57,171 bases of DNA from a candidate division WWE3 bacterium RIFOXYD1_FULL_43_17 (GCA_001773385.1 MEWJ01000020.1:1-57171), one strand, 5' to 3'; shown: positions 69-35,381, counted from the stretch's first letter. The notes: generated from the letters alone by a model not told the origin. A program made the numbers and translations.

Positions 69-1088
69 ATGAAGAAAATATCAATGATCATAGTAAATTA
101 CTGCACTAAGGGACTAATCGAGAAAAACATCAACACTCTTCTCGAAGCCTATGAAAACTGTGAGATAATTTTTGTAGACAACGACTCTCCGGATGGCTCG
201 GCTGAGCTTGTCGAAGAAAAATTTGGAAACAATCCAAAAGTTACTCTAATAAAAACTAAAAATAACGGCTTGGCGGCCGGTTATAATCTTGGACTTGAAA
301 AAGCTACGGGGGATTATATTTTATATCTAGGGACTGACGCATTTCCTACAAAAGAAGTCATGGACGGTCTGGTTGAGTATATGGATACTAATCATGACGT
401 AGGAGTGGCTACGGCCAGGTTATATACCAGAGACGGTAGCATAGACATAGACGCCCACAGAAGTTTTCCGACTCCTTGGATTGCAATTACGCACCTCTTG
501 ACTCTGGATAGGCTGTTTCCAAAATCAAAACTGTTTAACAAGTATTCAATGGGTTACGAGGATTTTAATACTATTCATGAGGTCGACGCGTGTATTTCCC
601 ACTTCATGTTTGTCAGACCCGAGGTGCACACACAAGTAAAGCGTTGGGATGAAGACTATTGGTTGTATGGGGAGGATATAGATTTTTGTTATAGAGTCAA
701 AAAAGCCGGTTTCAAAATAATGTATATGGGAAATCTAAGAGTTCTTCACTACAAGGGAGCGGCCGTAGGAAGAGATACGTCAAAAGACATAGATAACGCC
801 ATGAATACCGATTTTGACAGCCTGACCTTTAAAGATGAAAAAATCGAAAAAATTAAAACCGACGAACCCGCCACAACAAACGATAAAACCCAAAAAGTCA
901 GAGTTCCGAGCACCAAACTTTGGATGAAAATTAAGGTTTCAAAAGAATCCACAAAAGCCATGAGAACCTTCTACCGAAAACACTACATGAATAAATACCC
1001 GTTTGTTATAACTTGGCTGGTACTTGTCGGAATTTGGGTAAACGAAAAAATTAAGGTAACAAAGATCTGGCTGAATAACTACTTATAG
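69..1088 (+). CDS. GT2-family glycosyltransferase (rhamnosyltransferase-like) with hydrophobic C-terminal segment
   Basis: 339 aa. GT-A signatures MIIVNYCT and VDNDSPDGS, a DxD-like GTDAF, and the GEDIDFCYR motif typical of rhamnosyltransferase-type GT2. C-terminal FVITWLVLVGIWV helix. No SD upstream. Confidence 0.8.
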   Translation: MKKISMIIVNYCTKGLIEKNINTLLEAYENCEIIFVDNDSPDGSAELVEEKFGNNPKVTLIKTKNNGLAAGYNLGLEKATGDYILYLGTDAFPTKEVMDGLVEYMDTNHDVGVATARLYTRDGSIDIDAHRSFPTPWIAITHLLTLDRLFPKSKLFNKYSMGYEDFNTIHEVDACISHFMFVRPEVHTQVKRWDEDYWLYGEDIDFCYRVKKAGFKIMYMGNLRVLHYKGAAVGRDTSKDIDNAMNTDFDSLTFKDEKIEKIKTDEPATTNDKTQKVRVPSTKLWMKIKVSKESTKAMRTFYRKHYMNKYPFVITWLVLVGIWVNEKIKVTKIWLNNYL

Positions 1089-3075: not shown

Positions 3076-4368
3076 ATGAGCAGTGTAAGTGTCTCGGGTA
3101 CCGGCATACTGGAGTTAAAGGCTTATGTTAACAGCCCTAACGGACAGAACACCGTCAATCAATTCATTGAATGTCTGAGAGATGAGCTAGGCAGTAGAGA
3201 AAAATATGAGTCTGTCTGCCAAAAGGCTGAACTCTCTACAGAAACCTTCAATGAAATCAATTTCAGAGAGTTTATGGAAAACCTTGTACCGTTTATGCGG
3301 GAGCTCCCGCCAGGACACGATTCAGGTCATCTTTACAGAGACTTCCTTGGATCGGCAGCATTGTTTACAGGAGACCCCGGCATCAACAAGGCGAAATACA
3401 AAAGCGACAGCATTGCCGGCCTATTTGGATTCGCACATGATATTGGAAATTCTTTAATCCATAGGTATGCCGACAAAAACATGATCGCGGGACACGCTGA
3501 GATTGGTGCCTGGGTTGTATTTAACCTTATGAGAGATCTATTCGGTCGGGAAATTTCCATGATTGCAGCTTACGGAATTGCAGCTCATGGTCACCTTACT
3601 AAAGATCTACTCACACCGGGCGGGTTTGTCAGGAAACTGTATTGGGCAGAACTTTTTGACAACAACGGCCTTGTAGGATTCGCTGCCAAAATCATGGCAC
3701 GCGGTTGCGATCGTTTGGACACCGGTGGTGGAGTCAGCCAGCTTGTCCGCGACCTTTTAGCCTCAGCCGATGCTCTTGAGCAAGGTATAAAAGGTTACGA
3801 CATAAAAGGCGGCAGCCAGGATATGGAATACTTCGAGGTCAATCGGGAATCTTTGATTACAAAATTAAAGATTGAGATCAGGCCTCAGGATGCCCGTATC
3901 GGTGGACCGACGATTCTGGAACATCTTGACGGATATGCGAACACACAAATTCAGCAGAATCCTTCAAGTGTATATAACCAGGACGACGATAAGGTTCCAT
4001 TGCTTGCTTTGTTGATAAAAGACAGAGTTGAAAGACAGTGGTTCCTAAAAAACAGAATGCTGGGGATGATGAAATCTTTGTACGCATTAGAACCCGGTGT
4101 TCCCAGTTATGTTGCGTCGTGGTTGAAATTTAAGTCGTTAGCCAGGCAAATCAGCCATGCAGATCCCTGGAAACTGGACCGAACGTTCTCCGTGCTTGAA
4201 AGAGCTTGGCAGGAACAGAATCCGGTTACTTTGGCCGCTTGGGCAGATTCTATCCCGACGATCGGAGAACTGTACAAAGCTGAGGTAGAAAGCTACGCCG
4301 CTATAATTCAGAAATCCGGAACCTTCCTTTCTGATATATCGGCAGACATCCTCAAACGTATTATTTAA
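3076..4368 (+). CDS. HD/HDIG-domain putative metal-dependent phosphohydrolase with a large unassigned C-terminal region
   Basis: 430 aa. FAHDIGNSL, GHAEIGA, AAHGH and CDRLD are spaced like the H..HD..H..D ligands of HD-superfamily enzymes. AGGAGA SD lies 6 nt upstream. Flanked by promoter 3017..3045 and terminator 4377..4421. Confidence 0.5.
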   Translation: MSSVSVSGTGILELKAYVNSPNGQNTVNQFIECLRDELGSREKYESVCQKAELSTETFNEINFREFMENLVPFMRELPPGHDSGHLYRDFLGSAALFTGDPGINKAKYKSDSIAGLFGFAHDIGNSLIHRYADKNMIAGHAEIGAWVVFNLMRDLFGREISMIAAYGIAAHGHLTKDLLTPGGFVRKLYWAELFDNNGLVGFAAKIMARGCDRLDTGGGVSQLVRDLLASADALEQGIKGYDIKGGSQDMEYFEVNRESLITKLKIEIRPQDARIGGPTILEHLDGYANTQIQQNPSSVYNQDDDKVPLLALLIKDRVERQWFLKNRMLGMMKSLYALEPGVPSYVASWLKFKSLARQISHADPWKLDRTFSVLERAWQEQNPVTLAAWADSIPTIGELYKAEVESYAAIIQKSGTFLSDISADILKRII

Positions 4369-4454: not shown

Positions 4455-5615
4455 ATGGATAAGCCTAAAGTAGTTGGAATAGACGCGCGTTTCTATGGAA
4501 AAGCAGGTCCAGGCCGATACACAAAAAACATCATCAAATATCTGGAACAGATAGACAAAAAAAATAACTACATTATTTTTCTCAGAAAAGACTCGTTCGA
4601 AGATTACCTGCCTCAAAATCCAAATTTTAAAAAAGTGCTGGCTGAATACGTATGGTATTCGTGGGATGAGCAAATCAGGTTTTTGTTCAAAATTTTTCAG
4701 CAACGTTTGGACCTTTTCTATGTTCCTCACTTCAATGTACCTGTCTTGTACCCCGCGAGAATCGTTACCGCCATCCCTGATATCATAATGCATACTTTCA
4801 GCACAGAAGCCGGGACAACGTTGTGGAAACCGTATTTTAAGTTTAAAAAAATTATTTATAAAATAGTATTTTGGTGGGCGGTTAGAAGATCTTTTAAAGT
4901 CATTGTTCCTACAAAAGAGGTATTCCGTGATTTTAAGTCAATCTATCCAAGCGTTCCCGATGATAAATTTGTGGTAGCAACGGAAGGTATTGATCCCGAT
5001 CTGACATCGGCTAGAATGGATGACACACCCGCGGTTTTGAACAAATACGGGATAAAAAAGCCATTTTTGTTATACCTGAGCAGCATGTACGAACACAAAA
5101 ACGTCCCCAGGCTTTTGGAAGCTTTCAAGATCTTAACTGAGAAATACAACTTTGCCGGCTCTCTTGTTTTGGTTGGCAAAAAGGATAAATTTTCAGAACG
5201 AATTCGAGAACTTGTAAAAGAGATGAATCTTGAAGGAAGAGTCCTCATGCCCGGTATGCAAGGCTTTGTTACTGACGAAGAAACTATAGCCTTAAGAAAA
5301 GAGGCGCTAGCTTACGTTTTCCCTGCCCTAAAAGAAGGTTTCAGCCTGACCCCGCTTGAGGCACAATACTACGGTCTTCCGTGTGCGGTTTCCGACATTC
5401 CTTGTCACCGTGAGGTATACGGTGATTCGGTCTCATATTTCGATCCGCTTGATGTAAAAGATATGGCAGAAAAAATCAACCGGGTCCTAATAGACGATAG
5501 CATTAGGCAGGAACTTATAACCAAAGGGTACGAAAGAACAAAACTTTATAGCTGGCTGCATACCGCAGAAGTCACGCTAAGTGTGTTCAATAAAGCTCTG
5601 GGTGTCAAAGACTAG
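4455..5615 (+). CDS. GT4-family (GT-B, group 1) glycosyltransferase
   Basis: 386 aa. C-terminal KEGFSLTPLEAQYYGLPCAVSDIP matches the GT4 E-x7-E donor-binding motif. No SD upstream. Confidence 0.8.
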   Translation: MDKPKVVGIDARFYGKAGPGRYTKNIIKYLEQIDKKNNYIIFLRKDSFEDYLPQNPNFKKVLAEYVWYSWDEQIRFLFKIFQQRLDLFYVPHFNVPVLYPARIVTAIPDIIMHTFSTEAGTTLWKPYFKFKKIIYKIVFWWAVRRSFKVIVPTKEVFRDFKSIYPSVPDDKFVVATEGIDPDLTSARMDDTPAVLNKYGIKKPFLLYLSSMYEHKNVPRLLEAFKILTEKYNFAGSLVLVGKKDKFSERIRELVKEMNLEGRVLMPGMQGFVTDEETIALRKEALAYVFPALKEGFSLTPLEAQYYGLPCAVSDIPCHREVYGDSVSYFDPLDVKDMAEKINRVLIDDSIRQELITKGYERTKLYSWLHTAEVTLSVFNKALGVKD

Positions 5616-5663: not shown

Positions 5664-6908
5664 GTGCCAGCTAAATCACTGAAAAAAATCTCATTTGTAG
5701 GACTTGGAAATATATTTAACGCCGGGTTTGGGTTCTTCTTTCTGGCCGCCGTGGCGCGCACCCTTGATCTGGAAACTTTCGGCAAGTATGCCCTGTTATC
5801 TACGCTTCTTCTCACCATTTCAAAAATTGTGGATTTCGGCGCAAATTCGGTTTACGTTGCGAGGTCGATAAAGGAACAAAATAGCAAGTTATCCAGTACG
5901 TTGTTTACCCTCAAGGTTCTGCAATTTTTAATCTCGGTTCCCATTTCCTTAGTCAGCTTAAAATTACTAAATATTTTTGACGGGACAACCGCCTTAATAT
6001 TCATTCTCGGGATTCTTGCCTACACAATGAACTATCTTTTCTACGCATACTTTCAGCGTGCGGAAAAATATGCAGAGATGGTTCTTTTGAATACAATCCC
6101 TCAATTAATTAAAGGTGTTTTTGCTTTACTTTTTTTCACAGCAATTGTTACACCCAGCTTAAATTTAGCTTTCGGAGTTTTTTCGCTAACTATTTTCGCC
6201 GGAATAGTTTTATATTTCTTTTTGCCGGAAGAGAACAAAAAGTTCATATTCAATTTCCACGGAGTCGTAGAGCTTTTCAAAGAATCCTCACCGGCAGGTA
6301 TTTCTCAAATAGTTTACGAAAGTTGGGGAACCCTTAATAACGCAATCGCAAAATTTACAAAAGGTTTCGGCGACGTGGGAATTCTCTCGCTAGCCAATAA
6401 AATCTCAAATCTATTCTCTTTAGCTTCACTTTCAGTTTTTGCCGTTCTTCTACCAAAAAATGCTACGCGCAAATTAGCGGGCAAAAAATATGATTACCAG
6501 GAAACAGCATTAATAGCGGGAGCGATTATTGCCTTGGCAGCCCTAGCTATTACAGGCTCCGAGCTTTTTATTACAACTATTTTCGGTGAAAAATTCTCAG
6601 GTTCTGTAAGGCTCCTCGATATTTTAATTCTTGCAGCAGCAGTGTCAGCCATACACACGTTTATTGAAAATCTTTTCTTTGTTGAAAGTAAAACAGGGTA
6701 TATTATCGCCGCAACTGTAGTAAAACTTTCCACTTACGGATTAACCGCCGTAATTCTAGTACCGAAATTGTCTTTGTATGGAATTGCCTGGTCCAACCTG
6801 GTTTCAGCAATAGCGGGGTTAATCACAGCCCTCTATTTTGTTTCACGCTTTAGGGATTTACCGCAGCCGGAACTGCGACCTGAGCATCGTATTCCTTCTG
6901 AGATATAA
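5664..6908 (+). CDS. MOP/Wzx-type polysaccharide (lipid-linked oligosaccharide) flippase
   Basis: 414 aa with a GTG start. About 12 hydrophobic helices. N-terminus GLGNIFNAGFGFFFLAAVARTLDLETFGKYAL resembles polysaccharide-biosynthesis (MOP) proteins. Confidence 0.65.
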   Translation: MPAKSLKKISFVGLGNIFNAGFGFFFLAAVARTLDLETFGKYALLSTLLLTISKIVDFGANSVYVARSIKEQNSKLSSTLFTLKVLQFLISVPISLVSLKLLNIFDGTTALIFILGILAYTMNYLFYAYFQRAEKYAEMVLLNTIPQLIKGVFALLFFTAIVTPSLNLAFGVFSLTIFAGIVLYFFLPEENKKFIFNFHGVVELFKESSPAGISQIVYESWGTLNNAIAKFTKGFGDVGILSLANKISNLFSLASLSVFAVLLPKNATRKLAGKKYDYQETALIAGAIIALAALAITGSELFITTIFGEKFSGSVRLLDILILAAAVSAIHTFIENLFFVESKTGYIIAATVVKLSTYGLTAVILVPKLSLYGIAWSNLVSAIAGLITALYFVSRFRDLPQPELRPEHRIPSEI

Positions 6909-9711
6909 AGTACCAAAGTATCCAATCGCCGCGCTCCTCAATAACAATCGGCTTGTAATTAAACCCGACAACATTTTCACTGAACCTTCCCTTTTTTGTC
7001 AGAAGTATTGTCTGCTGAACGTACACCGGTATAGGAACACGGTCGTATCTATCAGCTCTAAAGTCCAGTACCTCAAACGGACCGTCGGTGTAGTACATCG
7101 CAAGTGGAATATCCATGCGGTCGATATAAACTTTAGTACTTACCCCGAAAGTCTTGTCTTTTAATACCAAAAGTTCGGACTCAGCCCCGGTAAGATCCGA
7201 AGTGTAAACCATACCACGGTAGTAAAAAAGATACGCCAGAGAAACGGCCACAATTAAAAAGATAGCTGACAGTTTGAACCAGAGCTTATCAAATTTCCTG
7301 AACCGTCCCATAAAATAATTAAGGAATTTGTCGATGAAGGAACCGACAATCAACGCGAGTGGGGGATACATCGGAATTACGTACCAGACAAGTTTGGATT
7401 TGGCAGCAGAGAAGAATAAAAATATAAACAAAGCCCAGACGAGTAGAAATACGTAAACCCTTCTTTTTTTGAATACTTTATAAATTGCTCCGGGTAGGGC
7501 AGCAAGCAAAACGATAAACCACAGACGCATGCTGACTTTCAAAACTATCAGGTACCAGAAGAAAGGTCTTCCCTTATCTTCAATGGAATTTACTGCCCTG
7601 TCCCAAACGTGATAGCCGAGATATTGGTTCAAAAATGCCATCCCGAACATTTTGTATGTGTAAATATGCCACGGCAAAGCTATCAGAGCCCAGCCTAATA
7701 ACATAAATAGAAACGGTTTAAGTGCTTTTACCGACAACTGCGTTTGTTTTGCTATTAAAAGGTACAGCTCGCACAAAATTATCACCGGAAATGGAATAAG
7801 CCCCACGACACCTTTCGTCATTACCGCAAACCCTGCAAATATCCCCGGGATTAGCCAAAGAAAATTCTGTTTCTTTCCCCTGACAAAAATGTAGGAAAAG
7901 AGGGAAGCCGAGATGAAAAAAGTTGCGGTCACGTCCGTCATGGCAGAGCGTGAATAGTATAAGTATTGTGTGGTTGTTAATAGAACGAGGGCGGATAAAA
8001 AGCCGGCCGTCTTGTTAAACATTTTTTTACCGGCGAAATAAACCATCATTACGGTCAAAAACCCCATAATTGCGCTTGGAAGTCTTGCGGCCAAAGGAAT
8101 TACACCCATCACCGACATGAACCCGGACATCATCCACATATATAAAGGAGGTTTCTCGTACCACACTGCCAGAGGTTTCCATTCCTGAACCAGATATTCT
8201 CCGGAACTCACCATGTTCTTGGCAATTTTGGCGTATATTGCTTCATCGTAAGGAATAAGGTGATTCTTACCGAGTCCCTGAAACATAAGTACTAGTGCCA
8301 AAACACCCAAAACCAAAGGAACGATTTTCTCTGATCTGAAAAAGTATGAAAAGACAATATTCCGGCCGAATTTTTCGTAAATTGTTCCCGCACCCCACGC
8401 GGCAATAAAAGAAAATATGAGCCAGAAAAATTCCGAATTATACGAATAAAAAATTCCCGCAGTAAGCCATCCGATAATTGTTGAAAAGAATACCGTGCTA
8501 ATTAAAAATTCTTTCTTTTTTTCTAATTTCAAAGCTCCGTAAAGTAATGCGGCAAGTATGGAGAAGGCGAATATGGTGAATGTCGTTAATCCTAAGAGGC
8601 CTGTTTCAGCCATAAGCTCGCCCCAGATAGTATGCGCCGGAACTCTTGTGTTTAAAGCGGCGGGGTCGCGGCTAAAATACGTAGGAGCTATTTTCGTGCT
8701 GCTAAAATGCTCAAAAAACGACCCATACCCTCCCCCGAGCAAAGGGTACTTCTCAAATATCTGCGTTGCTCCGGTCAAAAGCATAAAGTGCGAGTCAAAG
8801 GAATCCATTCTGTAATGGAAATATTGCTTGATACGGGCTCTGAAAGGGCTTGATTTGATGCTGTATTCCCTTAAAAAAGGCACCGAGAGCACCGCAAGTG
8901 CTATAAAAAGGTATAAAACGCCCTTTGACCCAATCTTCCTGAAAAGAAGCGTAGAAATGAAGACCAGGAAGGTAATCCCTGCCATAATCCACGCCGTGCG
9001 GCTGTTGGTAAGTAAAAGCGCCGCGAGCATTGAGATAAACATCAGAACATCAACTGCCCTACACTTTAGACTTTTGCCGGTAATTATTAAAACTCCTAAT
9101 AAAGGCAGCAAAGCCGACAATAAAGCTCCGTAATGATTCACATCCCAAAAAGTTGCGCCGACACGTGGCAAGTTTCCCGGAATGTTCCACAACGCCCCGA
9201 TTATTACACCTTTAGTTTGATACAGCCAAAACTGGAACCAGCCGAAACAAGTCAGTACGAACGCTGTGTAAATATAAAAACGCAAGTATTTAATTATCTG
9301 GTGGGGACGATTCTTGTAAGTAAAGTAAACCAGCAGGAAAGCCGCGACCGACGTCGTAAAAAATCCCAGCAAAAAAATGGAGGATTGGATATTTTTCGAG
9401 TTTATAATTGAAATCAGGCGTACTACCCAAAGAAGGACGATTGAAATTACAACCGGATCTTTCACTTTTTGGAACAATGCGGAAAAGTTTCTTTCTTTTA
9501 TTAGCCACATTACAGAACGTGTTAAAACTGCGGCAAGAAGGGCGAGCATGAACGCGCGGATTGGCATCAAGTCCCATCTATAAAAGCTAAAAAGTTCTTT
9601 GTGAAGAAGAACGGACAGTAGGATAAGCACGTACACTGCAAAATCCAGGTTACGGAGTATAAGTACGTATGAAAGAATACAAATTGTTGCTATTACTGCG
9701 ATTTCTGCCAT
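6850..9711 (-). CDS. Fusion membrane protein: N-terminal O-antigen-ligase/Wzy_C-like domain plus C-terminal ArnT/PMT_2 (GT39-like GT-C) domain
   Basis: 953 aa. Residues ~1-460 carry RVGATFWDVNHYGALL, LLTNSRTAWIMAG, YPLLGGGYGSF and PAHTIWGELMAETGLLG, the Wzy_C/WaaL-type motifs. Residues ~480-953 carry PYDEAIYAKIAKNM, WYEKPPLYMW and ARLPSAIMGFLTVMMVYF, the ArnT/PMT_2 motifs. Confidence 0.7.
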   Translation of the reverse strand: MAEIAVIATICILSYVLILRNLDFAVYVLILLSVLLHKELFSFYRWDLMPIRAFMLALLAAVLTRSVMWLIKERNFSALFQKVKDPVVISIVLLWVVRLISIINSKNIQSSIFLLGFFTTSVAAFLLVYFTYKNRPHQIIKYLRFYIYTAFVLTCFGWFQFWLYQTKGVIIGALWNIPGNLPRVGATFWDVNHYGALLSALLPLLGVLIITGKSLKCRAVDVLMFISMLAALLLTNSRTAWIMAGITFLVFISTLLFRKIGSKGVLYLFIALAVLSVPFLREYSIKSSPFRARIKQYFHYRMDSFDSHFMLLTGATQIFEKYPLLGGGYGSFFEHFSSTKIAPTYFSRDPAALNTRVPAHTIWGELMAETGLLGLTTFTIFAFSILAALLYGALKLEKKKEFLISTVFFSTIIGWLTAGIFYSYNSEFFWLIFSFIAAWGAGTIYEKFGRNIVFSYFFRSEKIVPLVLGVLALVLMFQGLGKNHLIPYDEAIYAKIAKNMVSSGEYLVQEWKPLAVWYEKPPLYMWMMSGFMSVMGVIPLAARLPSAIMGFLTVMMVYFAGKKMFNKTAGFLSALVLLTTTQYLYYSRSAMTDVTATFFISASLFSYIFVRGKKQNFLWLIPGIFAGFAVMTKGVVGLIPFPVIILCELYLLIAKQTQLSVKALKPFLFMLLGWALIALPWHIYTYKMFGMAFLNQYLGYHVWDRAVNSIEDKGRPFFWYLIVLKVSMRLWFIVLLAALPGAIYKVFKKRRVYVFLLVWALFIFLFFSAAKSKLVWYVIPMYPPLALIVGSFIDKFLNYFMGRFRKFDKLWFKLSAIFLIVAVSLAYLFYYRGMVYTSDLTGAESELLVLKDKTFGVSTKVYIDRMDIPLAMYYTDGPFEVLDFRADRYDRVPIPVYVQQTILLTKKGRFSENVVGFNYKPIVIEERGDWILWYFISQKEYDAQVAVPAAVNP

Positions 9712-10844
9712 TTGTTTAGGACTTCCTGATAAACCTCAAGCGTTTTAGCCGCGGCTTTTTCCCAAGTATATTCTTTCCTCATTTGCACTTCAATTTGAGG
9801 CCTCGGAGCCTTTAGCTGAGCTTTTACCGCTCCGGCTATAGAGTCAACACTGCCCGGGTCGCAATACGAAGCATACTCTTTAAGGTATTCTTTGGCCCTT
9901 TCACCTGCGGCCACTGCGTTCGCCCCGCAAAAAAGTGCTTCCAGACTGGTCAAACCTGTCGTTTCGAACCAGCTCGCGCTCACACCTACCTTGGCGTTTC
10001 TGTAATAATCCGGCATCTCCTGATAAGGTACTTTCTCTACATGATGGATCCACGGACATGCAGCTTTTTTGTCGTTAAACATTTTTCCATACTCGAAATG
10101 TTTTAATCCGGTCGAAACGCCTATAAGAACTAACTGTAAATCTTCACCAGTCTCGTTACGCAGTTTCTCGACGGCAGAAATTACATTCAATTGATTTTTT
10201 CTGGGTTCAATACGGCCCACGCAAATAATGTAATCACTCAGGTTGAGAGGATTTCTTTTTTGAGCCCCGGCGTCCTGTTCAATAAAATTTCTGCTTACAC
10301 CATTCGGGACTTTTACCGCATCAATTTTCACTCCGAATGTTTCTTCCAGATCTTTTGTCTCCAGGTCCGTCTGCACCAAAACCTTTTCTGACATTTCCAA
10401 AACTTCTTTCTGCATTTTTTGAAATCCGTGAGTAATACTCACAAGTGTAGGTTTAATTTTTTTAGGGTCGGTTAATGATCTGTAAACATTTTTAAAAGTG
10501 TCGCGGTGAAACTGATTGCTGAAAAGAATCTTGGAGAGTCTGCGGAAGTCGAACACGTATTCGTCGTCGAATCTTTTCACTTCCTTTATGCTGTGGTGAA
10601 TAGGCGACAAGATTATGGGTTTTTCAGCCTCATGAGCTTTTTGGGCATATAAATATGTTTCCGGTGTCCAGTCCAGTTGAAATAAGTGGATAATGTCGTA
10701 GTTCCGGGGAATAAAGTCCTCGTCGGTTTTGATTTCAACGTCTGCACCGAGAGCTCTCAACTCACGCGCCGTGTTTTCAATCTGAACTTTGTCTCCCCCA
10801 CCATGTTCCATTAAGTGATACCTTCCAAGCATTAATATTTTCAT
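9693..10844 (-). CDS. GT4-family glycosyltransferase
   Basis: 383 aa. WFETTGLTSLEALFCGANAVA is a GT-B group-1 motif. Overlaps both neighbours at stop/start. Confidence 0.75.
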   Translation of the reverse strand: MKILMLGRYHLMEHGGGDKVQIENTARELRALGADVEIKTDEDFIPRNYDIIHLFQLDWTPETYLYAQKAHEAEKPIILSPIHHSIKEVKRFDDEYVFDFRRLSKILFSNQFHRDTFKNVYRSLTDPKKIKPTLVSITHGFQKMQKEVLEMSEKVLVQTDLETKDLEETFGVKIDAVKVPNGVSRNFIEQDAGAQKRNPLNLSDYIICVGRIEPRKNQLNVISAVEKLRNETGEDLQLVLIGVSTGLKHFEYGKMFNDKKAACPWIHHVEKVPYQEMPDYYRNAKVGVSASWFETTGLTSLEALFCGANAVAAGERAKEYLKEYASYCDPGSVDSIAGAVKAQLKAPRPQIEVQMRKEYTWEKAAAKTLEVYQEVLNKWQKSQ

Positions 10845-11989
10845 TTTTTCTTCATCAGCCCTTCATAAAGTGAAACATAGCTGTCTGTAAACGACTCAAT
10901 GCTAAACATTTCGGAAACTCTTTTATTCCCCTGCAGGTGAGGACCCTGTTCGTTGTTAACATATTTTTCGTACGCTTCAATCATTTTTTCCGAAAGATCG
11001 GAAGAATCCCCGGCGCGAAAATATGTGACCGTATCGGCGGCCACTTCTTTTAACACTTCAAGATCAGAACAAATAACAGGAAGACCTGAATACATAGCTT
11101 CAATTAATACCAGCCCGAAACCTTCGGCCAGTGTCGGAAATACAAAAAAATCAAAAGCTGAGTAAAATTTCACTTTATCTTCATCTGCAAATTCCCCGGT
11201 GAATATAACTTTGTCTGAAACACCCTTTGTTACTGCCAATTGCCTGATTTCACTTTCAAGCTCCCCTCCTCCGGCAATAAACAAGACAAAATCTTTGGAA
11301 TGATACATGTCGGTTCCGAGAAATTTCTTGTAAGCCTCGAGCAGAACATCATGGCCTTTTTCCCGTGATATTCTTCCGACATTTCCGAATACAAATGCGT
11401 TCATATTTATCCCGTACTTCTTTCGTATCTCCTCTTCGTAACCGCTTTTTGTTATTGGCGAGATGGTTAGCTTGGCCGTATCCAGGCCGTTAGGTATCAC
11501 TACTATCTTGTCCTTATTAATACCTTCTTTGACTTTCACGTTCTTTTTCGACGGGGTAAGGGCGATCTCTGCGTCCGAGAAACGGTTAACGATAAAACTA
11601 TAAAAAAGGGCGTCGACCTTACGTTTGGTGGGGTTTATCTTCCACTCTGAAATCGGCGTGTGCACGTGTGTAATTTTTACCGGAGTATGAGCGGCTCTTG
11701 CAGCGGTAAGCGCGTTGGCCACGGCTTTTAGTTCGTGCGCGTGAACAACATCTATCTCTTTTTCTTTTAAAAATGCGGTGAGTTCCTCGATATAAGCGCG
11801 GTCAAAATCTGAAGAAATACTTTTTCTAAAAACCCGGGCTCCTGCTTCTTCATAAATATCAGCGGGTATTCCGACAGGGCACCAGACAAAAACTTCATTT
11901 CCTACACTTAACATTCCTTTAATAAGGTCTAAAACGTGCTGCTCCATGCCTCCCTGTTTTGATGAGTTGTGTATGTATAGAATTTTCAT
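10841..11989 (-). CDS. GT4-family glycosyltransferase
   Basis: 382 aa. PTLAEGFGLVLIEAMYSGLPVICSDL is the canonical E-x7-E motif. ATGA overlaps at both ends. Confidence 0.8.
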   Translation of the reverse strand: MKILYIHNSSKQGGMEQHVLDLIKGMLSVGNEVFVWCPVGIPADIYEEAGARVFRKSISSDFDRAYIEELTAFLKEKEIDVVHAHELKAVANALTAARAAHTPVKITHVHTPISEWKINPTKRKVDALFYSFIVNRFSDAEIALTPSKKNVKVKEGINKDKIVVIPNGLDTAKLTISPITKSGYEEEIRKKYGINMNAFVFGNVGRISREKGHDVLLEAYKKFLGTDMYHSKDFVLFIAGGGELESEIRQLAVTKGVSDKVIFTGEFADEDKVKFYSAFDFFVFPTLAEGFGLVLIEAMYSGLPVICSDLEVLKEVAADTVTYFRAGDSSDLSEKMIEAYEKYVNNEQGPHLQGNKRVSEMFSIESFTDSYVSLYEGLMKKK

Positions 11990-13203
11990 TTTTTGAGTAA
12001 GTCGCCTATGATCCTCAGCATTCTTTCGACCTTTCCATCCCAGTCGTTACTTTTTGCAACTTTTTGTCTGGCCATTCTTCTTTCAAGGCTGTCGTCTTCC
12101 AGAGCTTTTCTCACAAACTGAGAAAATTCGTTGTAGCTTTTTGCAATGTAACAAACATCCGCGAACGGGGCGTACGCCGGAAGATCGGTAACAATCGTCG
12201 GAAGTCCTGCGGCTAGCCCCTCATGAAATTTTACGGGGAAACACCCGCCAACCGTGTAATCATTAAGTCTGTAAGGGATTATGGTCGCGTCAAAAGCGGC
12301 AACGTAATTATGTATTTCGGAAAACGGCTTGGTGCCTAGATAGTGGAGGTTCGGCAGTCCGCCTAATCCCAACTCCTCCAAAGAACCTTCTCTGTCCTTC
12401 AAAGCAATCGGTCCGATAATTACAAAAGAATATTTCGGGTAGTCCGTCACAATCTTTTTCATAAGCTCCCTGTCGAACTTATAATTATCGACCGCCCCGT
12501 AAAATCCTACGATCGGGTGCGGAATGGATTTTATGTCTTCGGGATAGTTTCTTATGCGTGCTTTAATATCAAAAAACTTAGGGTAGTCACCGACGTTGGG
12601 CGTGAAATAAACATTAGAATTAAATTTCTTAAGTTTTTCGACTAGTCCCGGCGCTGTTGAAAACACAACATTGGCTCTCATCGCAAGACCCTGTTCTTTT
12701 TTATTTATCGCATCTTTTTTCTCCGGAGTGCTGTATTTGGGGAAACCCGCGTAATTGTCCACGCAATCGTAAACTAAAAAGTCATGTTCAATGTATTTTA
12801 GATATTGGTCAAGTCCTGCGATCTCAACGTGATAGATCCAAAGAATTGTGTTGCGGTCGGGGTTAAAAAATTTCTTCGTAGCATTTTGAATAGCTTTTGC
12901 ATGAAGCTCGGCATGTTTTTCATGAGCGGGAGAAAAATCCAAAGGAGAAAATACGAGTACGTTTCCCATCTTCTGTGTTTTCGTAAGAAGTTTCAGCGGG
13001 CTCCATTTTCCCTGTAAAATCTGGCGCATAAACAAGCGTCCGGTGTTAATAGGAGGGTCGACAAACAATACATTGTGTCCCAGCTTCTCGAGCCTTGTCA
13101 TGACATGCTTTTTATTCGTCCAAAGTGGATAGTCCCAAAGTTGGTTCGAAAGACAGATTATGTTGTATTTTTCACCTTGCAGATGCATATCCGGATTCCG
13201 CAC
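11986..13203 (-). CDS. GT-B glycosyltransferase, TuaH-like/GT4-like
   Basis: 405 aa. N-terminus IICLSNQLWDYPLWTNKKHVMTRL resembles TuaH-type enzymes. C-terminal FHEGLAAGLPTIVTDL. The track start is GTG 13203; ATG 13188 (MHLQGEKYN) is more likely. Confidence 0.6.
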   Translation of the reverse strand: MRNPDMHLQGEKYNIICLSNQLWDYPLWTNKKHVMTRLEKLGHNVLFVDPPINTGRLFMRQILQGKWSPLKLLTKTQKMGNVLVFSPLDFSPAHEKHAELHAKAIQNATKKFFNPDRNTILWIYHVEIAGLDQYLKYIEHDFLVYDCVDNYAGFPKYSTPEKKDAINKKEQGLAMRANVVFSTAPGLVEKLKKFNSNVYFTPNVGDYPKFFDIKARIRNYPEDIKSIPHPIVGFYGAVDNYKFDRELMKKIVTDYPKYSFVIIGPIALKDREGSLEELGLGGLPNLHYLGTKPFSEIHNYVAAFDATIIPYRLNDYTVGGCFPVKFHEGLAAGLPTIVTDLPAYAPFADVCYIAKSYNEFSQFVRKALEDDSLERRMARQKVAKSNDWDGKVERMLRIIGDLLKK

Positions 13204-13272: not shown

Positions 13273-14646
13273 CTATAAACACTTTGGACACGCCGAAACC
13301 AGTAAACCAAGTTTTACCAGCACCCGCCTGACATCAAATAAAAACTGGGAGTCCTTAATTGACCATAACCACGAGGTATTTTCGTAACCGAGGTCGTAAG
13401 CGGCGTGCCAGATTCCGTCAAAAAAGAAAAGTCCGTAAATCTCTATGAAAACCGACAGTCCGAAAAGAATGAAAAATATTTTCTTGGTCTTTTCAAAGGC
13501 CGCAGAATTAATGTAGGGGATTAATAAAAATATAAAATATGGGAGAACATCGCTCGACATTCTGTACCCGAACGACCAGCCTCCATACCAATGCTTCCAT
13601 AAACTTATAACAAGTGTGTGCAGGAGGATGATAACTGCAAATATCTTATATAACCCGGCCTTTTCAATTTTACCTTTTACTGCCAGATACAAACCGTAGA
13701 AAGAAAAGATTAGGACCGGAGAGAAAATTAGTATTCCTTTACTCGGCGAAAGCCAAACTCCCAAAAAGCTTATTGGAAACGGCGAAAGCCACGAACGGAA
13801 CAGCTGGTCCGAGTATCCCTGGTTTTGAATATCGTAATAGTAAACGGAGTTGTACCAGAGGAAGAACGAAGCAGCTATAACCAAACCCGAAGTAAAGGTA
13901 ACAGCCGACTTAAACAAATTGTCGGTTTTATGAAGATTAGTAAAAACTAAATAAAGTTCAATTAATAAAATGGGAAGGCCGGCGGTTGGTCTGGATAAAA
14001 ACGCGAACCCGAAAAAGAGACCTGACAGTAACATATTTAAATAAGCACTTTGGTTCTTCTGGTGCTTGAGGAAAAAGTAGATTCCCAAAATAGAAAGCAG
14101 CTGTAAGGTACCGTGCTGCCACATCGCCTGAGAAAGCATCGCAAAGTTAACGGTGGCGAATAAATAAACCGCCGTGAGAATTGTGGACTTTTTTTCTTCC
14201 AGTCCGAATCCTTCGCGCAGAGTTTTGAATAGAAACAATCCGGCCAAGGCCATGACCAGAGCACCTGATAAATGATTTAACAACGCAAGGTTATCCCAAG
14301 TTATAGGCATGTTGAAAATCAGGGGCAACACAAAAACCGGAACCGACAGGATAGAAGTAATAATTGGAAACGCCGTAATATAATGCCCGCCAACTTTTCT
14401 TAAATAAAAGGGCGTCAAATCTTTTTGAAAATCCTTATCGTCCGGGTGAGGATAACGGTCACGCATCATCACATAATATTTATCCAGGTAAAGCGTGCGG
14501 TCTTTAATAATTGAAACAGTTGTGAAAATAGAAGGCACCGTATCTTCGCTTTGAATGATCAGAGAATTAATGTTACGGAAGCCGGGGATTATAAATGGAA
14601 CAAAAAATACCGCGAGAGAAATTAAAAATACTTTAAGCTGAGACAT
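13273..14646 (-). CDS. Polytopic membrane protein, possible GT-C-type glycosyltransferase
   Basis: 457 aa with at least 10 hydrophobic helices. Acidic early loops (QSEDTVPS, PHPDDKDF) as in GT-C enzymes. No motif-level family assignment; the function is inference. Confidence 0.45.
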   Translation of the reverse strand: MSQLKVFLISLAVFFVPFIIPGFRNINSLIIQSEDTVPSIFTTVSIIKDRTLYLDKYYVMMRDRYPHPDDKDFQKDLTPFYLRKVGGHYITAFPIITSILSVPVFVLPLIFNMPITWDNLALLNHLSGALVMALAGLFLFKTLREGFGLEEKKSTILTAVYLFATVNFAMLSQAMWQHGTLQLLSILGIYFFLKHQKNQSAYLNMLLSGLFFGFAFLSRPTAGLPILLIELYLVFTNLHKTDNLFKSAVTFTSGLVIAASFFLWYNSVYYYDIQNQGYSDQLFRSWLSPFPISFLGVWLSPSKGILIFSPVLIFSFYGLYLAVKGKIEKAGLYKIFAVIILLHTLVISLWKHWYGGWSFGYRMSSDVLPYFIFLLIPYINSAAFEKTKKIFFILFGLSVFIEIYGLFFFDGIWHAAYDLGYENTSWLWSIKDSQFLFDVRRVLVKLGLLVSACPKCL

Positions 14647-19793: not shown

Positions 19794-21980
19794 TTACCTC
19801 TGTATCACTTCTATTCCCTGATCGGTCCAGATTATGAAGGGATTGTTAAGAACGCCCATTTTCATGAGCTCGTTGATAGGGGCGCTTAGATCAAAACCTT
19901 CTTCGGTTGTTTTTACGTCGATGGGAAATTCTTTTTCTACATCGGCTGAGTATGAGGTGATAAATTTTGCAGTTCCGGGTGTTTGATACAGGATTGAGTA
20001 TTTATTTTCGTTTAGTATGTCTTTGTTGAGGAATGTTAGGGGGATTTCGGTGTCTCCGGTCACCAACTTTACCTCTAAAAAAATACTAGGTTCTGTACCC
20101 ACAACCCTCGCAATAACAAAATTTTCATGCAGCGGAGGCATACCTAAAGGTACTTCGAATATTTTTGTACCGTCACTACTTGAACAGCCGGGGAATTTAA
20201 GAATCTCGATCGATTCCGTAATTATTGCATTTTGTTCAGCCTCGTCACGTCCCAAACTGTAGATTTCCAAATTTATTGTTGCGGGTTCTGGGTTCGCGGT
20301 ACAGATTATTGCCAACTCTATTCTCGGCGCCTGCTGGCCTGCAAAGTCTGCAAAACTGAATATTGTAGAGAACGAGTTACTCTGGATGAGGGGTAGTATT
20401 CCTGGATTTCTTAACAAAATTTCAATCGTAGGCTCGATTTTGCCAGAAATAATAGCGAAATTTCCACTATCTTCGAACGCACTTAATGGACGATTGATAA
20501 TCTTCTGAGCCCCCTGATTATACGTCAAGTAACCGTCGGCAAATACTTTAGAAATACCATTGTAAAAATGAGGGCGAAATAGAACGTTTTTCCCCCATTT
20601 CTTGCTATATGGAAATAGTACTATCTCCTTATTTAGCCCTATCAAAGGTTCATGAGAATATTTTATCGGCGTACCGTTTAAATAAATCGGGTAAGTAATG
20701 TTAAGGGTAAGGGTTAAAACCATAGACGCAATTATTATGCTTCCTTCTTTTTTGTTGAACAACGTGACAAGAACTATTTTTCTATTTCTCATATATACCA
20801 GAGAAAGCATTAAGAAAGACAAGCTCCCTATCAAAAAACTGATCATGTTTTCAACCTCCACGAAGGCTAGCAGGGCGGTGGTAACCCACATTACTGCAAC
20901 CACTGCCCACTTGATAAAATCATTTTTTAGACTAAATGCCCTAAATTTATTAACGGAATTTCCGATAATTGAAATAAAACTCGGAAGAGTTACTAAAACT
21001 GCAAATATCCCTAAAATATAGTTGTAACCCAGAAAACCTAGCTTAAAGATATTCTTCGACATTACAACTTGAGGAAAATTTGTCGGGTTTAGTGTGTTTA
21101 ATATATAGCTAGCTGCATACCCAGAGTCACCCATTAATGCCCCCCTTACGCCCAATGCGTAGATAATAGGTATATAAAGTGTCGAGATAATAAAAAATAT
21201 AAAAATAATAACGTCAAAGTTTTTTCTAATAAAATTAAGGGGGCGGCGGTACACCACTACGAAGAGTTCTTTTGTAAAATTGCTTCTCGATCTTGAACCT
21301 AAAAGAACTAACAACCTCCCAGCTAGAAGCACAACAGTTAATAATGCAAACGCATAAATAGAACCCTCTAGTATTGAAGAATTTCTAAGTTTGTCTACAG
21401 TATCAAATACTGGCGTTTTTGATAAAGCGCCGCCACGCTCCAGAGTTACTTTATCCGCATCAGCCAATGCTTTAAAATAATTACCAAGTTTTAAGCGGTA
21501 CTCTGGAGTGACAAGAAGAATCTCCGGAACAACATAATAAGTAACTCCTCCGACAACAACCGGCCTAATTACCTCACCCAATATATTGGATGTAATAGAT
21601 TCATCGGGCTTTAACAAAGAAAAATTTATGTCTCTCAACGTGGTATAAGTGCATGGCGCAGGTAGCGCGGAGTTTAACAAATCGTCAGTGTCACATATTA
21701 ATATGATATTGCGATATGAGAACCCCGGAGAAAGTTTTTGCGAAGATAGCAGAAGAAGATAGCTGTCAGCACCAATAGTATTAACATTCTCTGGGGGCTC
21801 TACAACATAATTAATCCCGGCAGTATCTTCCTGAGTCTCAATTGTATCGATGGTAAGATTCCAAGACCTGAACAGCTCTTTGTAGTAGTCTACGGAGTTG
21901 CTTGCCATTGTACCGGAACTCAAAAATGCAATTCCCAAAAGAGCAAAAAATAGTGTAAATTTCGTAATACTTTTATTCAT
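19794..21980 (-). CDS. Large membrane protein of unknown function (signal-like N-terminus, central multi-TM block, soluble C-terminal domain)
   Basis: 728 aa. FTLFFALLGIAFLSSG signal-like segment, then ~200 aa soluble, ~8 helices and a ~270-aa soluble C-terminus. No recognisable motif. Confidence 0.5.
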   Translation of the reverse strand: MNKSITKFTLFFALLGIAFLSSGTMASNSVDYYKELFRSWNLTIDTIETQEDTAGINYVVEPPENVNTIGADSYLLLLSSQKLSPGFSYRNIILICDTDDLLNSALPAPCTYTTLRDINFSLLKPDESITSNILGEVIRPVVVGGVTYYVVPEILLVTPEYRLKLGNYFKALADADKVTLERGGALSKTPVFDTVDKLRNSSILEGSIYAFALLTVVLLAGRLLVLLGSRSRSNFTKELFVVVYRRPLNFIRKNFDVIIFIFFIISTLYIPIIYALGVRGALMGDSGYAASYILNTLNPTNFPQVVMSKNIFKLGFLGYNYILGIFAVLVTLPSFISIIGNSVNKFRAFSLKNDFIKWAVVAVMWVTTALLAFVEVENMISFLIGSLSFLMLSLVYMRNRKIVLVTLFNKKEGSIIIASMVLTLTLNITYPIYLNGTPIKYSHEPLIGLNKEIVLFPYSKKWGKNVLFRPHFYNGISKVFADGYLTYNQGAQKIINRPLSAFEDSGNFAIISGKIEPTIEILLRNPGILPLIQSNSFSTIFSFADFAGQQAPRIELAIICTANPEPATINLEIYSLGRDEAEQNAIITESIEILKFPGCSSSDGTKIFEVPLGMPPLHENFVIARVVGTEPSIFLEVKLVTGDTEIPLTFLNKDILNENKYSILYQTPGTAKFITSYSADVEKEFPIDVKTTEEGFDLSAPINELMKMGVLNNPFIIWTDQGIEVIQR

Positions 21981-22380
21981 CTACAATCCTATCGTAAAAC
22001 ACATCTTTAAACGCTCCTAGAGCTAAGCATAGGTACACGAGCGTGGCAAAAAACTCAGCAATTTTATTAATTCCGAGAACGTGAAATAAAATGCAAGAAA
22101 CAAATAAAATTATGGCAAGAATATAAATGTGTTTTCGCTGAGACAGGAACCCATAAAAAAAAGCCCACAAACCTGCGAACGTCAGTGCTGCATATATAAC
22201 ACCAATAATACCGGATTTAATCATTACAAGTAAAAAAATTACTATTAATAAAAGGGGCGGTAATGTGGTACTAAACTTTTTCGCGCCAACGACACGCACA
22301 AAGAAAGTATCTATCGGAAGAAACAGTAAGATAAAGAAGACTAAATAAAGTATGTAAATAAGCGCGTTAAACGACATCAT
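21973..22380 (-). CDS. Small 4-helix membrane protein, unknown function
   Basis: 135 aa, almost entirely hydrophobic. 8-nt overlap with the start of the downstream gene. Confidence 0.5.
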   Translation of the reverse strand: MMSFNALIYILYLVFFILLFLPIDTFFVRVVGAKKFSTTLPPLLLIVIFLLVMIKSGIIGVIYAALTFAGLWAFFYGFLSQRKHIYILAIILFVSCILFHVLGINKIAEFFATLVYLCLALGAFKDVFYDRIVDE

Positions 22381-22413
22381 AGGTATGTTATCACAAGTTG
22401 AAGACGCCTCTGG

Positions 22414-24099: not shown

Positions 24100-24115
24100 T
24101 TGGTATTTTTGCGTT

Positions 24116-35049: not shown

Positions 35050-35098
35050 TGCATCTCCTTTTTCAGGCACTTTACTGCACAGAAAGGCAAGGGAGGAA

Positions 35099-35320: not shown

Positions 35321-35344
35321 TAATATTTTATTAATTGAGCGTAA

Positions 35345-35381
35345 GCCCGTTGTTTTTACCAAAATACAACGGGCCTTTTTT
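35345..35381 (+). terminator. Rho-independent terminator ending the first island transcription unit
   Basis: GCCCGTTGT (35345-35353) pairs with ACAACGGGC (35366-35374), followed by CTTTTTT. Confidence 0.7.

Follow-up and report, generated by a model that had tools for sequence, protein, structure and literature searches.

Within a 57,171-nucleotide stretch of DNA from a candidate division WWE3 bacterium (RIFOXYD1_FULL_43_17; the window), one gene appears to join two membrane glycosyltransferases of different types, which raises the question of whether such a chain is real and, if so, what its two halves do together. A sequence-only reading had described a single 953-residue polypeptide in which a Wzy_C-like half, of the family that includes O-antigen ligases, precedes an ArnT-like GT-C half. 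The open reading frame is as proposed, with an ATG start, 953 codons without interruption and a stop codon at 6850-6852, and to this we add the strand (minus), which had not been given. All six of the motifs quoted for the two halves are found in its translation (Table 1).

Table 1. Features of the fusion gene, its product and its neighbourhood (nucleotide positions in the window; residues of the fusion protein)
Feature	Residues	Position (nt)	Strand	Remarks
Wzy_C::ArnT-like fusion ORF		6850-9711	minus	953 aa + stop
N module, WaaL/Wzy_C-type	1-448	8368-9711	minus	Pfam, Foldseek, profile match, helix map
Motif LLTNSRTAW	233			
R238 codon, invariant	238	8998-9000	minus	aligned to R191 of Cupriavidus WaaL; outer end of TM7/TM8
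Large outward loop of N module	285-361	8629-8859	minus	before last three helices
Motif GGGYGSF	326			
Motif AHTIWGELMAETG	359			
H360 codon	360	8632-8634	minus	aligned to catalytic His313 of Cupriavidus WaaL (profile alignment)
Cytoplasmic linker	449-462	8326-8367	minus	fixed length, sequence poorly conserved
C module membrane part, ArnT/PMT-type GT-C(A)	463-830	7222-8325	minus	Pfam, phmmer, Foldseek
Motif DEAIYAK	489			
D489-E490, first outward loop, DEAIYAK motif	489-490	8242-8247	minus	equivalent to ArnT D55/E56
Motif YEKPPLYMW	518			
E519-K520	519-520	8152-8157	minus	equivalent to ArnT E84/K85
Motif RLPSA	543			
D593	593	7933-7935	minus	equivalent to ArnT D158
R705	705	7597-7599	minus	equivalent to ArnT R270
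Y777	777	7381-7383	minus	equivalent to ArnT Y345
Soluble alpha/beta C-terminal domain	831-953	6853-7221	minus	predicted outside the membrane, as ArnT periplasmic domain
GT4 glycosyltransferase beyond flippase		4455-5615	plus	conserved in 43 related loci
Wzx-type flippase (Polysacc_synt)		5664-6908	plus	convergent; 3' end overlaps 3' end of fusion gene
Three GT4 genes		9693-13203	minus	directly upstream, abut or overlap fusion gene; 57-64 related loci
457-aa PMT_2-type GT-C (ArnT-like), separate gene		13273-14646	minus	first in conserved block; 48 related loci
Candidate polyprenyl-P-hexose synthase, GT2, AglJ/PpgS-like		50031-50714		40 kb off, beside other PMT_2 genes
UDP-glucose dehydrogenase		55785-57167		

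Both domains exceed their Pfam gathering scores: Wzy_C (PF04932) matches residues 224-378 with 44.2 bits against a gathering score of 31.7, PMT_2 matches residues 520-681 with 77.8 bits against 26.1, and PMT (PF02366) matches residues 468-687 with 58.8 bits against 22.7. The AlphaFold model of the full chain is confident throughout (pLDDT 87.5, pTM 0.86), and the junction, previously put at about nucleotide 8330, coincides with the 14-residue linker between the two modules. The model's helix map gives 12 predicted transmembrane helices in the N module, with both termini cytoplasmic, and about 11 in the C module (~23 in total), an arrangement which, with a cytoplasmic linker between the modules, would leave both active sites facing outward. 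Averaged over the family, short loops carry 1.5-4.4 lysines plus arginines where they are cytoplasmic and 0-1.0 where they face out, which likewise places the N module N-in/C-in and both catalytic loops outside, so that the outward orientation expected from sequence is upheld at the level of prediction.

Since related contigs carry the two domains as split, adjacent genes (L081 and L084, Wzy_C then PMT_2 in unchanged order), and one related assembly (L021) contains a frameshifted copy of the fusion gene, it might be supposed that a missed stop or frameshift had merged two neighbouring genes here. We consider the chance of this negligible and reject it. The same architecture was present in all of the best 120 protein clusters, which were drawn from NCBI, JGI, ENA and Logan assemblies with precomputed domain calls, share 46-96% identity with the fusion protein and measure about 895-1016 residues when complete. 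It also recurs in 79 loci of species-representative genomes, in 72 of which at least 60% of the protein length is matched, and these include a closed WWE3 chromosome (CP006914.1) with a homologue at 85% identity. Moreover, positions 445 and 465 are separated by 19-20 residues in 53/53 homologues, and the length of the junction thus varies by one residue at most. The two-domain architecture and its boundaries are upheld, and the fusion gene is real and is widely conserved in candidate division WWE3 (Patescibacteria). Many WWE3/Patescibacteria genomes already have the protein in databases as 'glycosyltransferase family 39 protein'; literature searches returned no characterised protein of this Wzy_C + ArnT-like type, in line with the earlier view that none has been characterised.

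The structural counterpart of the N module is the O-antigen ligase WaaL of Cupriavidus metallidurans (7TPG), which likewise has a GT-C(B)-like fold of 12 transmembrane helices, the last three of them preceded by a large loop on the outer side. The two were matched by Foldseek (7tpg_B, E 7e-6, TMt 0.60, 447 aligned columns) and by a profile comparison (E 2e-6); a single-sequence search of the PDB with this half gave no match. Within the outward loop, H308, GGGYG (326-330), R356 and H360 are invariant across 53 homologues sharing 46-86% identity with the fusion protein. In the profile alignment the WaaL-type arginine and catalytic histidine (R191 and H313 in C. metallidurans) have counterparts, R238 and H360, that are both present and invariant. 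The second loop arginine of WaaL, R265 (R288 in the E. coli enzyme), instead faces a histidine, the invariant H308, in a loop where the alignment is weak; R301, seven residues upstream of H308, is invariant only inside the WWE3 clade. The N module differs from WaaL further in being distant in sequence, in being covalently tied to a second GT-C module and in forming a clade of its own, which is small: only 112 representative clusters at E<=1e-10 among 1.84 billion. Patescibacteria are not known to possess a lipid A-core or to synthesise lipid A, so that the canonical acceptor of WaaL would be absent from this host. At the level of the family, a conserved catalytic histidine is also shared with PglL/PilO/TfpO and with the S-layer O-OTases of Firmicutes, whose clusters comprise a priming transferase, glycosyltransferases and a flippase and lack a chain-length regulator; we know of no characterised O-OTase with a second GT-C module. 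Elsewhere, Wzy_C is found joined to unrelated modules such as GT2 and TPR.

The C module most closely resembles ArnT (GT83), the undecaprenyl-phosphate-L-Ara4N:lipid A transferase, both in sequence (5ezm, phmmer E 2e-22 over residues 470-796) and in structure (5f15, the best Foldseek match, E 2e-12, TMt 0.67); Foldseek also matches the model to Pmt1/2/4. ArnT has been assigned to the GT-C(A) class (PMC12041525). With ArnT and the PMT_2/PMT proteins (GT39) the module shares the DE motif of the first loop, EKPP and the D, R and Y positions, and, with ArnT, a soluble C-terminal domain outside the membrane, although ArnT has 13 transmembrane helices and the C module, by our own count, about 11. 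When residues were equated through the 5ezm alignment, corrected for a 3-residue tag offset, the ArnT-type catalytic equivalents D489/E490, E519/K520, D593, R705 and Y777 all proved invariant in the 53 homologues; in ArnT these E-K, D, R and Y positions bind undP and the acceptor. The fusion protein scores 101.6 bits against the NCBIfam ArnT equivalog (NF009784), far below the cut-off of 567; it is therefore not an ArnT orthologue, and the sugar and acceptor specificity of ArnT cannot be transferred to it. Eukaryotic PMTs carry a MIR domain, whereas the fusion protein has no Pfam match to MIR at E<=0.1; as bacterial Pmt enzymes, to our knowledge, also lack MIR, its absence rules out the eukaryotic PMT type only.

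The two modules are embedded in a conserved gene cluster, ordered PMT_2, three GT4 genes, fusion gene, convergent Wzx and a further GT4 (43-64 loci). Where a Wzx gene occurs in a related locus (60 loci), it lies in 57 of them on the strand opposite the fusion gene, as a rule no more than about 350 bp away, and the third upstream GT4 (11989-13203) resembles TuaH (E 2e-23). A priming phosphoglycosyltransferase (Bac_transf) occurs in 50 related loci (most other WWE3 genomes), and none was found in the flanks examined around the window's fusion gene or those of its closest relatives. DUF4012, found in 43 related loci, has a single N-terminal transmembrane helix, and no two-helix Wzz-like co-polymerase was found in the conserved cluster; nor does this contain an identified acceptor protein or, in its core, a polyprenyl-P-sugar synthase or GtrA-like flippase.

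That the two halves serve one pathway, as had been suggested from their coupling in one chain, is supported by several observations: where the genes are split they keep the same order, identity falls in parallel in the N and C halves among homologues, the linker is fixed in length, the architecture recurs in the 120 best clusters and 79 genome loci, and the Wzx-dependent cluster is conserved. The linker is held in length though not in sequence (mean conservation 0.37, against 0.64 and 0.63 for the modules). Its fixed length, the high pTM of the model and the adjacency of the genes when split argue for physical cooperation. We conclude that the fusion protein probably performs two outward-facing steps in one surface-glycan pathway. 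Two consecutive transfers onto one acceptor, as first suggested, may be how it does so, with the Wzy_C module acting as a ligase, an O-oligosaccharyltransferase or a polymerase.

A more specific proposal, to which we give an even chance, is that in WWE3 the protein completes, on the extracytoplasmic side, a conserved Wzx-dependent pathway for a surface glycan, its two catalytically competent outer-face modules carrying out, in either order, an en-bloc transfer and the transfer of a single sugar. Judging from gene content, the cytoplasmic assembly of an undecaprenyl-pyrophosphate-linked oligosaccharide would fall to a small phosphoglycosyltransferase together with some five GT4 enzymes, and the neighbouring Wzx would move the product to the outer face. 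By the chemistry of the families, the N module, with R238 and H360, would then take the glycan en bloc off its pyrophosphate carrier, and we lean slightly towards ligation to a final acceptor over polymerisation as the outcome. On the same grounds the C module, using D489/E490, E519/K520, D593, R705 and Y777, would draw on a polyprenyl-monophosphate donor to attach one sugar to that same acceptor or glycan, either priming the acceptor before ligation or decorating or capping the chain. For the acceptor we consider surface proteins (S-layer proteins or pilins), glycolipids of the membrane and polymers of the wall. Several findings weigh against the proposal: the histidine that faces WaaL R265; the score far below the ArnT cut-off; a conserved core cluster with no polyprenyl-P-sugar synthase or GtrA-like flippase, the only candidate synthase lying 40 kb off; the missing Bac_transf in the flanks examined of the window's gene and of its closest relatives; and a sister clade, described below, that has mostly lost the ArnT-type residues, so that the C module may be mainly a scaffold or binding partner.

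This proposal has parallels in known systems. In the PSP pathway of Lactococcus lactis, Wzx (WpsG), a polymerase (WpsI) and a GT-C ligase that attaches PSP to rhamnan (WpsJ) work in series (PMC9574508). There, as proposed here, Wzx is followed by two lipid-carrier-dependent outer-face membrane transferases acting in turn on one glycan, but these are separate proteins and the glycan is carried on C55-P, not C55-PP. Three-component systems (GtrA/GtrB/Gtr*, GacI-L, Citrobacter ORF12-15) also modify glycans at the outer face with an ArnT-like GT-C and a polyprenyl-P-sugar, and in some of them periplasmic GT-C enzymes act while the glycan is still undPP-linked, ahead of ligation (PMC11127046; PMC9574508). 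In these systems, however, a stand-alone GT-C sits beside its donor synthase and small flippase, whereas here the GT-C is fused to a Wzy_C enzyme and the conserved core cluster includes neither a synthase nor a GtrA-like gene.

The same data could be read with the Wzy_C half as a repeat-unit polymerase of a teichuronic-acid- or capsule-like polymer, and the ArnT-like half as the attachment enzyme, which would transfer to the final acceptor, en bloc, either the completed chain or the first unit of it, the pair working in the manner of WpsI and WpsJ. In B. subtilis the putative polymerase of the tua operon, TuaE, is a Wzy_C protein, and in the window the TuaH-like GT4 and the UDP-glucose dehydrogenase are consistent with such a polymer, as is the position of the N module as the sole Wzy_C-type protein in a Wzx/GT4 cluster that mostly includes a priming transferase. 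WpsG/WpsI/WpsJ show that a polymerase followed by a GT-C ligase is possible (PMC9574508). We nevertheless judge this reading rather unlikely. No two-helix Wzz-like co-polymerase was found, the DUF4012 protein having one helix, Bac_transf yields pyrophosphate-linked intermediates whereas the Lactococcus PSP is C55-P-linked, and none of the ArnT catalytic residues is missing from the C module. ArnT-type enzymes take monophosphate-linked monosaccharides as donors. In addition, a sister clade of ~850 residues, in which the Wzy_C residues are kept and the ArnT-type ones mostly lost (D489, E519/K520, D593, R705, Y777), would be left without an attachment enzyme.

As a sub-case of the pathway that we favour, with a protein as acceptor, the ArnT/PMT-like module, behaving like bacterial Pmt, would place a first sugar on serine or threonine of a pilin or S-layer protein, and the Wzy_C module would then add the undPP-linked oligosaccharide, after the model of PglL/PilO or WaaL. 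Protein-directed members exist in both families, the PMT score and the Pmt1/2/4 structural matches point the same way, and general O-glycosylation loci have a composition similar to that seen here, with a priming transferase, glycosyltransferases, Wzx, one Wzy_C enzyme and no chain-length regulator. Against this, the conserved cluster is without an identified acceptor protein, MIR is absent, the closest matches in sequence and structure are to ArnT rather than PMT, and the present data fit a protein, lipid or glycan acceptor alike; we judge this version unlikely. It is improbable, too, that the two halves act independently and the fusion serves co-expression alone, or that the C module is a non-catalytic structural or carrier-lipid-binding partner. 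The ~850-residue clade does imply that C-module catalysis is not always required, and that the module may be mainly a scaffold or binding partner; a second sister group, of ~700 residues, has it shortened to about five transmembrane helices, and the joining of Wzy_C to GT2 and TPR modules would also fit a looser association. In the window's own clade, however, none of the ArnT-type catalytic residues varies among 53 sequences, even at 46% identity, and this speaks in favour of catalysis having been kept; the signs of physical cooperation given above also count against an uncoupled fusion.

Returning to the two-step outer-face pathway, we tentatively raise a stronger version, which we think possible though doubtful: that the protein is a self-contained machine, either 'prime-and-ligate' or 'polymerise-and-finish', in which a GT-C(B) en-bloc transferase and a GT-C(A) monosaccharide transferase are obligatory partners. 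Were that so, this Wzy_C clade would always be accompanied by a GT-C partner, whether fused, adjacent or reduced to a degenerate pseudo-enzyme scaffold. In either form, the two outward-facing sites would pass a single acceptor between them, and their product would be a surface glycoconjugate specific to the Patescibacteria.

The fusion gene is an uninterrupted reading frame of 953 codons that begins with ATG and lies on the minus strand; translation of the plus strand gave many stops. All six motifs that had been picked out from the sequence alone were recovered from the product, at residues 233, 326, 359, 489, 518 and 543, and a Pfam scan matched both of the domains that had been proposed to share one chain: Wzy_C at residues 224-378 (44.2 bits, against a gathering score of 31.7), together with PMT_2 at residues 520-681 (77.8 bits) and PMT at residues 468-687 (58.8 bits) in the C-terminal, ArnT/GT39-like half. 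Matches to NCBIfam were all sub-threshold, the best being to the ArnT equivalog model over residues 470-837, which scored 101.6 bits where the cut-off is 567.

The sequence-only reading had raised the concern that a missed stop or a frameshift at about 8330 might have created the fusion artificially. We searched 5.8 billion protein clusters and obtained 308 relatives; among the best 120 of these, which share 46-96% identity with the query and are ~895-1016 aa long when complete, every one (120/120) has the Wzy_C plus PMT_2 architecture. Where a source organism is named among these 120, it is candidate division WWE3 or Patescibacteria; where a product name is given, it is ‘glycosyltransferase family 39 protein’. 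Scanning one genome per GTDB species revealed 79 loci with relatives of the fusion, including a copy with 85% identity on the closed chromosome of WWE3 RAAC2_WWE3_1 (CP006914.1) and one in RIFOXYB1_FULL_43_24 that matches at 90%. In 72 of the 79 loci the match spans 60% or more of the protein length, and the gene was single-copy wherever the genome scan located it. It is among the better conserved genes of its glycan cluster, with ~50% identity across the class. Across an alignment of 53 homologues, conservation is the same in both modules (mean column conservation 0.64 versus 0.63) and the 14-residue linker between them (residues 449-462) is poorly conserved in sequence and varies in length by at most one residue. 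Since the architecture is shared across clusters and loci and the length of the linker is nearly constant, these comparisons exclude, for practical purposes, a missed stop or frameshift as the source of the fusion.

A few database records deserve separate comment. The copy in L021, a locus from the MAG KatS3mg101, is frameshifted inside the N module and has 21 stops in the expected frame, probably through an assembly error, and the match in L071, another related locus, exceeds the expected span by ~400 nt, suggesting an insertion or a split. In the series of loci L007-L080, many species-representative MAGs with this WWE3-type gene bear the record title ‘uncultured Candidatus Saccharibacteria bacterium’, and one bears the name Nomurabacteria; the submitters' labels are probably coarse or wrong here, not signs of a truly wider distribution.

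We also searched 1.84 billion representative proteins with the N module alone, using HMMER. This yielded only 468 matches at E<=1e-3, of which 112 reach E<=1e-10 and 72 reach E<=1e-30. The strictest set of 72 comprises 30 proteins of 900 aa or more, 21 of 680-899 aa and a remainder of shorter sequences that are mostly fragments. In ~34 representative clusters the C module could be aligned to that of the query over most of its length, and the identities of the C and N modules fall in step (49% with 47% in one instance, 33% with 33% in another). Three stand-alone relatives of the N module were followed into their contigs, and in all three a PMT or PMT_2 gene comes directly after them on the same strand. 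In L081 a 460-aa Wzy_C gene ends in a stop and, after a 55-bp spacer, is followed by a 497-aa PMT_2 gene, the product of which has 36% identity to the query C module (E 1e-73); six contigs carry this identical 460-aa protein. In L084 a 431-aa gene and a 483-aa gene are separated by 9 bp, while in L083 the PMT pieces after the stand-alone relative are fragmented and overlapping. Wzy_C and PMT_2 are one gene pair, fused or adjacent, in a Rosetta-stone relationship. Two genes beyond the split pair, L081 also harbours a second Wzy_C paralogue (P0138, 428 aa), which adjoins a Wzx flippase; both paralogues are equally close to the query N module, at 37-38% identity. Elsewhere, Wzy_C is joined to unrelated modules such as GT2 or TPR repeats.

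Other relatives carry altered C-terminal halves. A sister clade of ~850-aa proteins from Patescibacteria/WWE3 (P0271, P0275, P0161, P0172, P0284 and others, all encoded outside the window) keeps the N-module residues R238, H308 and H360 and the GYG motif; most of the ArnT-type residues (D489, E519/K520, D593, R705 and Y777) have been lost, with E490 often kept. In a group of ~700-aa proteins only about five TM helices follow the Wzy_C module. The sister groups may represent a GT-C domain decaying into a pseudo-enzyme.

An AlphaFold2 model, built from the 53-sequence alignment, was confident over the whole chain (mean pLDDT 87.5, pTM 0.86), from which we infer that the two modules are predicted to have a defined mutual arrangement. 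The top Foldseek match in the PDB was ArnT (5f15; E 2e-12, TMt 0.67), followed by other GT-C(A) enzymes, namely ALG12, AglB, PglB, STT3 and Pmt4, with the WaaL ligase 7tpg_B in fifth place (E 7e-6, TMt 0.60, 447 columns). Sequence alignment to ArnT 5ezm (E 2e-22) placed D489, E519/K520, D593, R705 and Y777 opposite ArnT D55, E84/K85, D158, R270 and Y345, numbered after correction for the 3-residue tag offset of the PDB chain. A single-sequence PDB search with the fusion returned ArnT only, and the link to WaaL emerged only with profile and fold searches: WaaL was the sole PDB match of an N-module profile (E 2e-6), with R238 aligned to WaaL R191, H360 to WaaL H313, and an invariant H308 at the position of WaaL R265. 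The aligned catalytic-type residues of both modules are invariant in the 53-sequence alignment.

Topology was read from the helices of the AlphaFold model combined with family-averaged positive-inside counts, a crude Kyte-Doolittle scan being too noisy. The short loops assigned to the cytoplasm carry 1.5-4.4 K+R on average, versus 0-1.0 for those assigned to the outer face. The N module is predicted to cross the membrane with 12 TM helices, beginning and ending in the cytoplasm, and the short linker is likewise predicted to be cytoplasmic. The C module would begin as ArnT does, with TM1 running from inside to outside and the first loop, bearing D489/E490, outside; it would have ~11 TM helices and an external soluble domain (residues 831-953). 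The helix map and the K+R counts thus bear out the earlier expectation that both catalytic loops face outward.

The fusion lies within a conserved core cluster. This block opens with the 457-aa PMT_2 gene (48 related loci) and continues with three GT4 genes that abut the fusion on its own strand (57-64 related loci), the fusion itself, a convergent Wzx (on the opposite strand in 57 of 60 loci, mostly within ~350 bp) and a further GT4 (43 related loci). In most other WWE3 genomes the block goes on with another GT4, a Bac_transf phosphoglycosyltransferase (211 aa, 50 related loci) and a DUF4012 protein (43 related loci) whose single N-terminal TM helix precedes a ~610-aa external part, as in L001; neither of the latter two was found in the window or in the 8-kb flanks of the closest relatives, L002-L006.

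Coordinates of features in the window and in related loci
Locus	Position	Strand	Feature	Remarks
Window	69-1085		GT2	
Window	3076-4368	+	430-aa ORF	soluble
Window	5664-6908		Wzx-type flippase	
Window	6850-9711	-	Fusion gene	stop codon 6850-6852
Window	11989-13203		GT4	TuaH-like, E 2e-23
Window	13273-14646		PMT_2-type GT-C	457 aa
Window	19794-26392	-	Four consecutive ORFs	728 aa (~7 TM helices); 135 aa (4); 561 aa (~7); 758 aa (~12)
Window	29036-30073		GT10 fucosyltransferase-like	
Window	34900-36780		~1.9 kb between gene blocks	short overlapping ORFs only, 110-196 aa, both strands
Window	36781-38391		B12-binding radical-SAM enzyme	
Window	40512-41789		Wzx-type flippase	
Window	41786-43381		PMT_2-type GT-C	
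Window	43378-44904		PMT_2-type GT-C	
Window	44861-46435		PMT_2-type GT-C	
Window	46437-47906		Wzx-type flippase	
Window	47911-50019		DUF2079 membrane protein	
Window	50028-50714	-	228-aa GT2	between the DUF2079 gene and a PMT_2 gene
Window	50717-52252		PMT_2-type GT-C	
Window	55782-57167		UDP-glucose dehydrogenase	
L001	16590-19221		Bac_transf and DUF4012	after the cluster
L021	8001-9380		Frameshifted copy of the fusion	
L071	1517-4781		Overlong match to the fusion	
L081	12221-13507		Second Wzy_C paralogue (P0138)	

The whole window (1-57171) is one glycan-biosynthesis island. More than a dozen of its genes are of the GT4/GT2 type, and it also encodes at least eight SAM methyltransferases, five PMT_2-type GT-C enzymes besides the fusion, three Wzx-type flippases and RmlB- and RmlD-like enzymes. 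Polyprenyl-phosphate hexose synthases are the relatives suggested for the 228-aa GT2 by its matches (AglJ, E 1e-33; dolichyl-P hexose transferase; PpgS), and it is a candidate source of lipid-monophosphate sugar donors for the many GT-C enzymes of the island. The GT2 near the start of the window was considered as the polyprenyl-P-sugar synthase as well, a role for which it has no support: it is without TM helices, gave generic GT2 matches only and occurs in only 15 loci. The four consecutive membrane ORFs matched no Pfam family at E<=0.001; the 135-aa one is GtrA-like in size and shape without an HMM match, the 758-aa one gave a faint GT-C_AftD match (E 0.006), and all four could be GT-C enzymes, polymerases or flippases that went unrecognised. 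The 430-aa ORF, which has the conserved GT4 on one side and the rhamnose-pathway genes on the other, matched nothing in Pfam or NCBIfam and is without a counterpart in any of the ~80 related loci. In the ~1.9-kb interval between gene blocks, two ORFs tested gave no significant Pfam match and there was no Rfam or tRNA match; Rfam and tRNA scans of the whole window likewise found nothing.

Enzymes of the Wzy_C family transfer glycans en bloc from undecaprenyl pyrophosphate, and ArnT/PMT-type enzymes use polyprenyl monophosphates as donors of single sugars. Taken with the outward topology, this family chemistry leads to a working model in which the N module would ligate or polymerise a flipped oligosaccharide and the C module would prime, decorate or cap the same acceptor or chain. 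In the Wzx-dependent pathway that the cluster encodes, the N module is the only WaaL/Wzy-type enzyme. As to which reaction the N module performs, we lean slightly towards a ligase over a polymerase, because a co-polymerase is absent and the Arg/His pattern is WaaL-like. A role of DUF4012 as a Wzz-like co-polymerase is not supported, since it has one TM helix and not two, and the 430-aa ORF was rejected as a separate Wzy polymerase, being soluble and not conserved in related loci. The acceptor may be a protein, a glycolipid or a wall polymer, and either module's step could come first. The C module may also, or even chiefly, be structural, a caution raised by the sister clade in which this module is degenerate. 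The working model has precedents in separate proteins: a periplasmic GT-C decorates undPP-linked O-antigen before WaaL ligation (PMC11127046), whereas in WWE3 the two activities would be fused, and the WpsG/WpsI/WpsJ series of Lactococcus (PMC9574508) likewise consists of separate proteins where WWE3 has one chain.

Both modules come from families already known, and public databases list the protein under generic names; our literature search found nothing relevant on the fusion, or on O-antigen ligases, in CPR/WWE3. We take WaaL to be a GT-C(B) enzyme. ArnT has been classed as GT-C(A) (PMC12041525). The fusion is a conserved, lineage-specific and uncharacterised protein in which an en-bloc transferase is coupled to a GT-C(A) monosaccharide transferase. 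It is a solid finding, and a suggestive one for CPR envelope biology and for enzyme cooperation, though not categorically new. That a WaaL/Wzy-type enzyme occurs naturally fused to one of ArnT type is a Rosetta-stone argument that both transferase classes cooperate physically, an idea that could extend to separate-protein systems such as O-antigen decoration before ligation, or a polymerase plus a GT-C ligase in Gram-positive wall polysaccharides. For structural studies of substrate hand-off the fusion would make a compact target, with the degenerate sister clade as a built-in natural control, and it could serve glyco-engineering. To our knowledge, there has been almost no biochemical study of the envelopes of Patescibacteria (candidate phyla radiation) cells. 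The surfaces of these cells mediate attachment, on which their symbiotic lifestyle depends, and the conservation of the fusion within a glycan cluster marks a conserved surface glycoconjugate.
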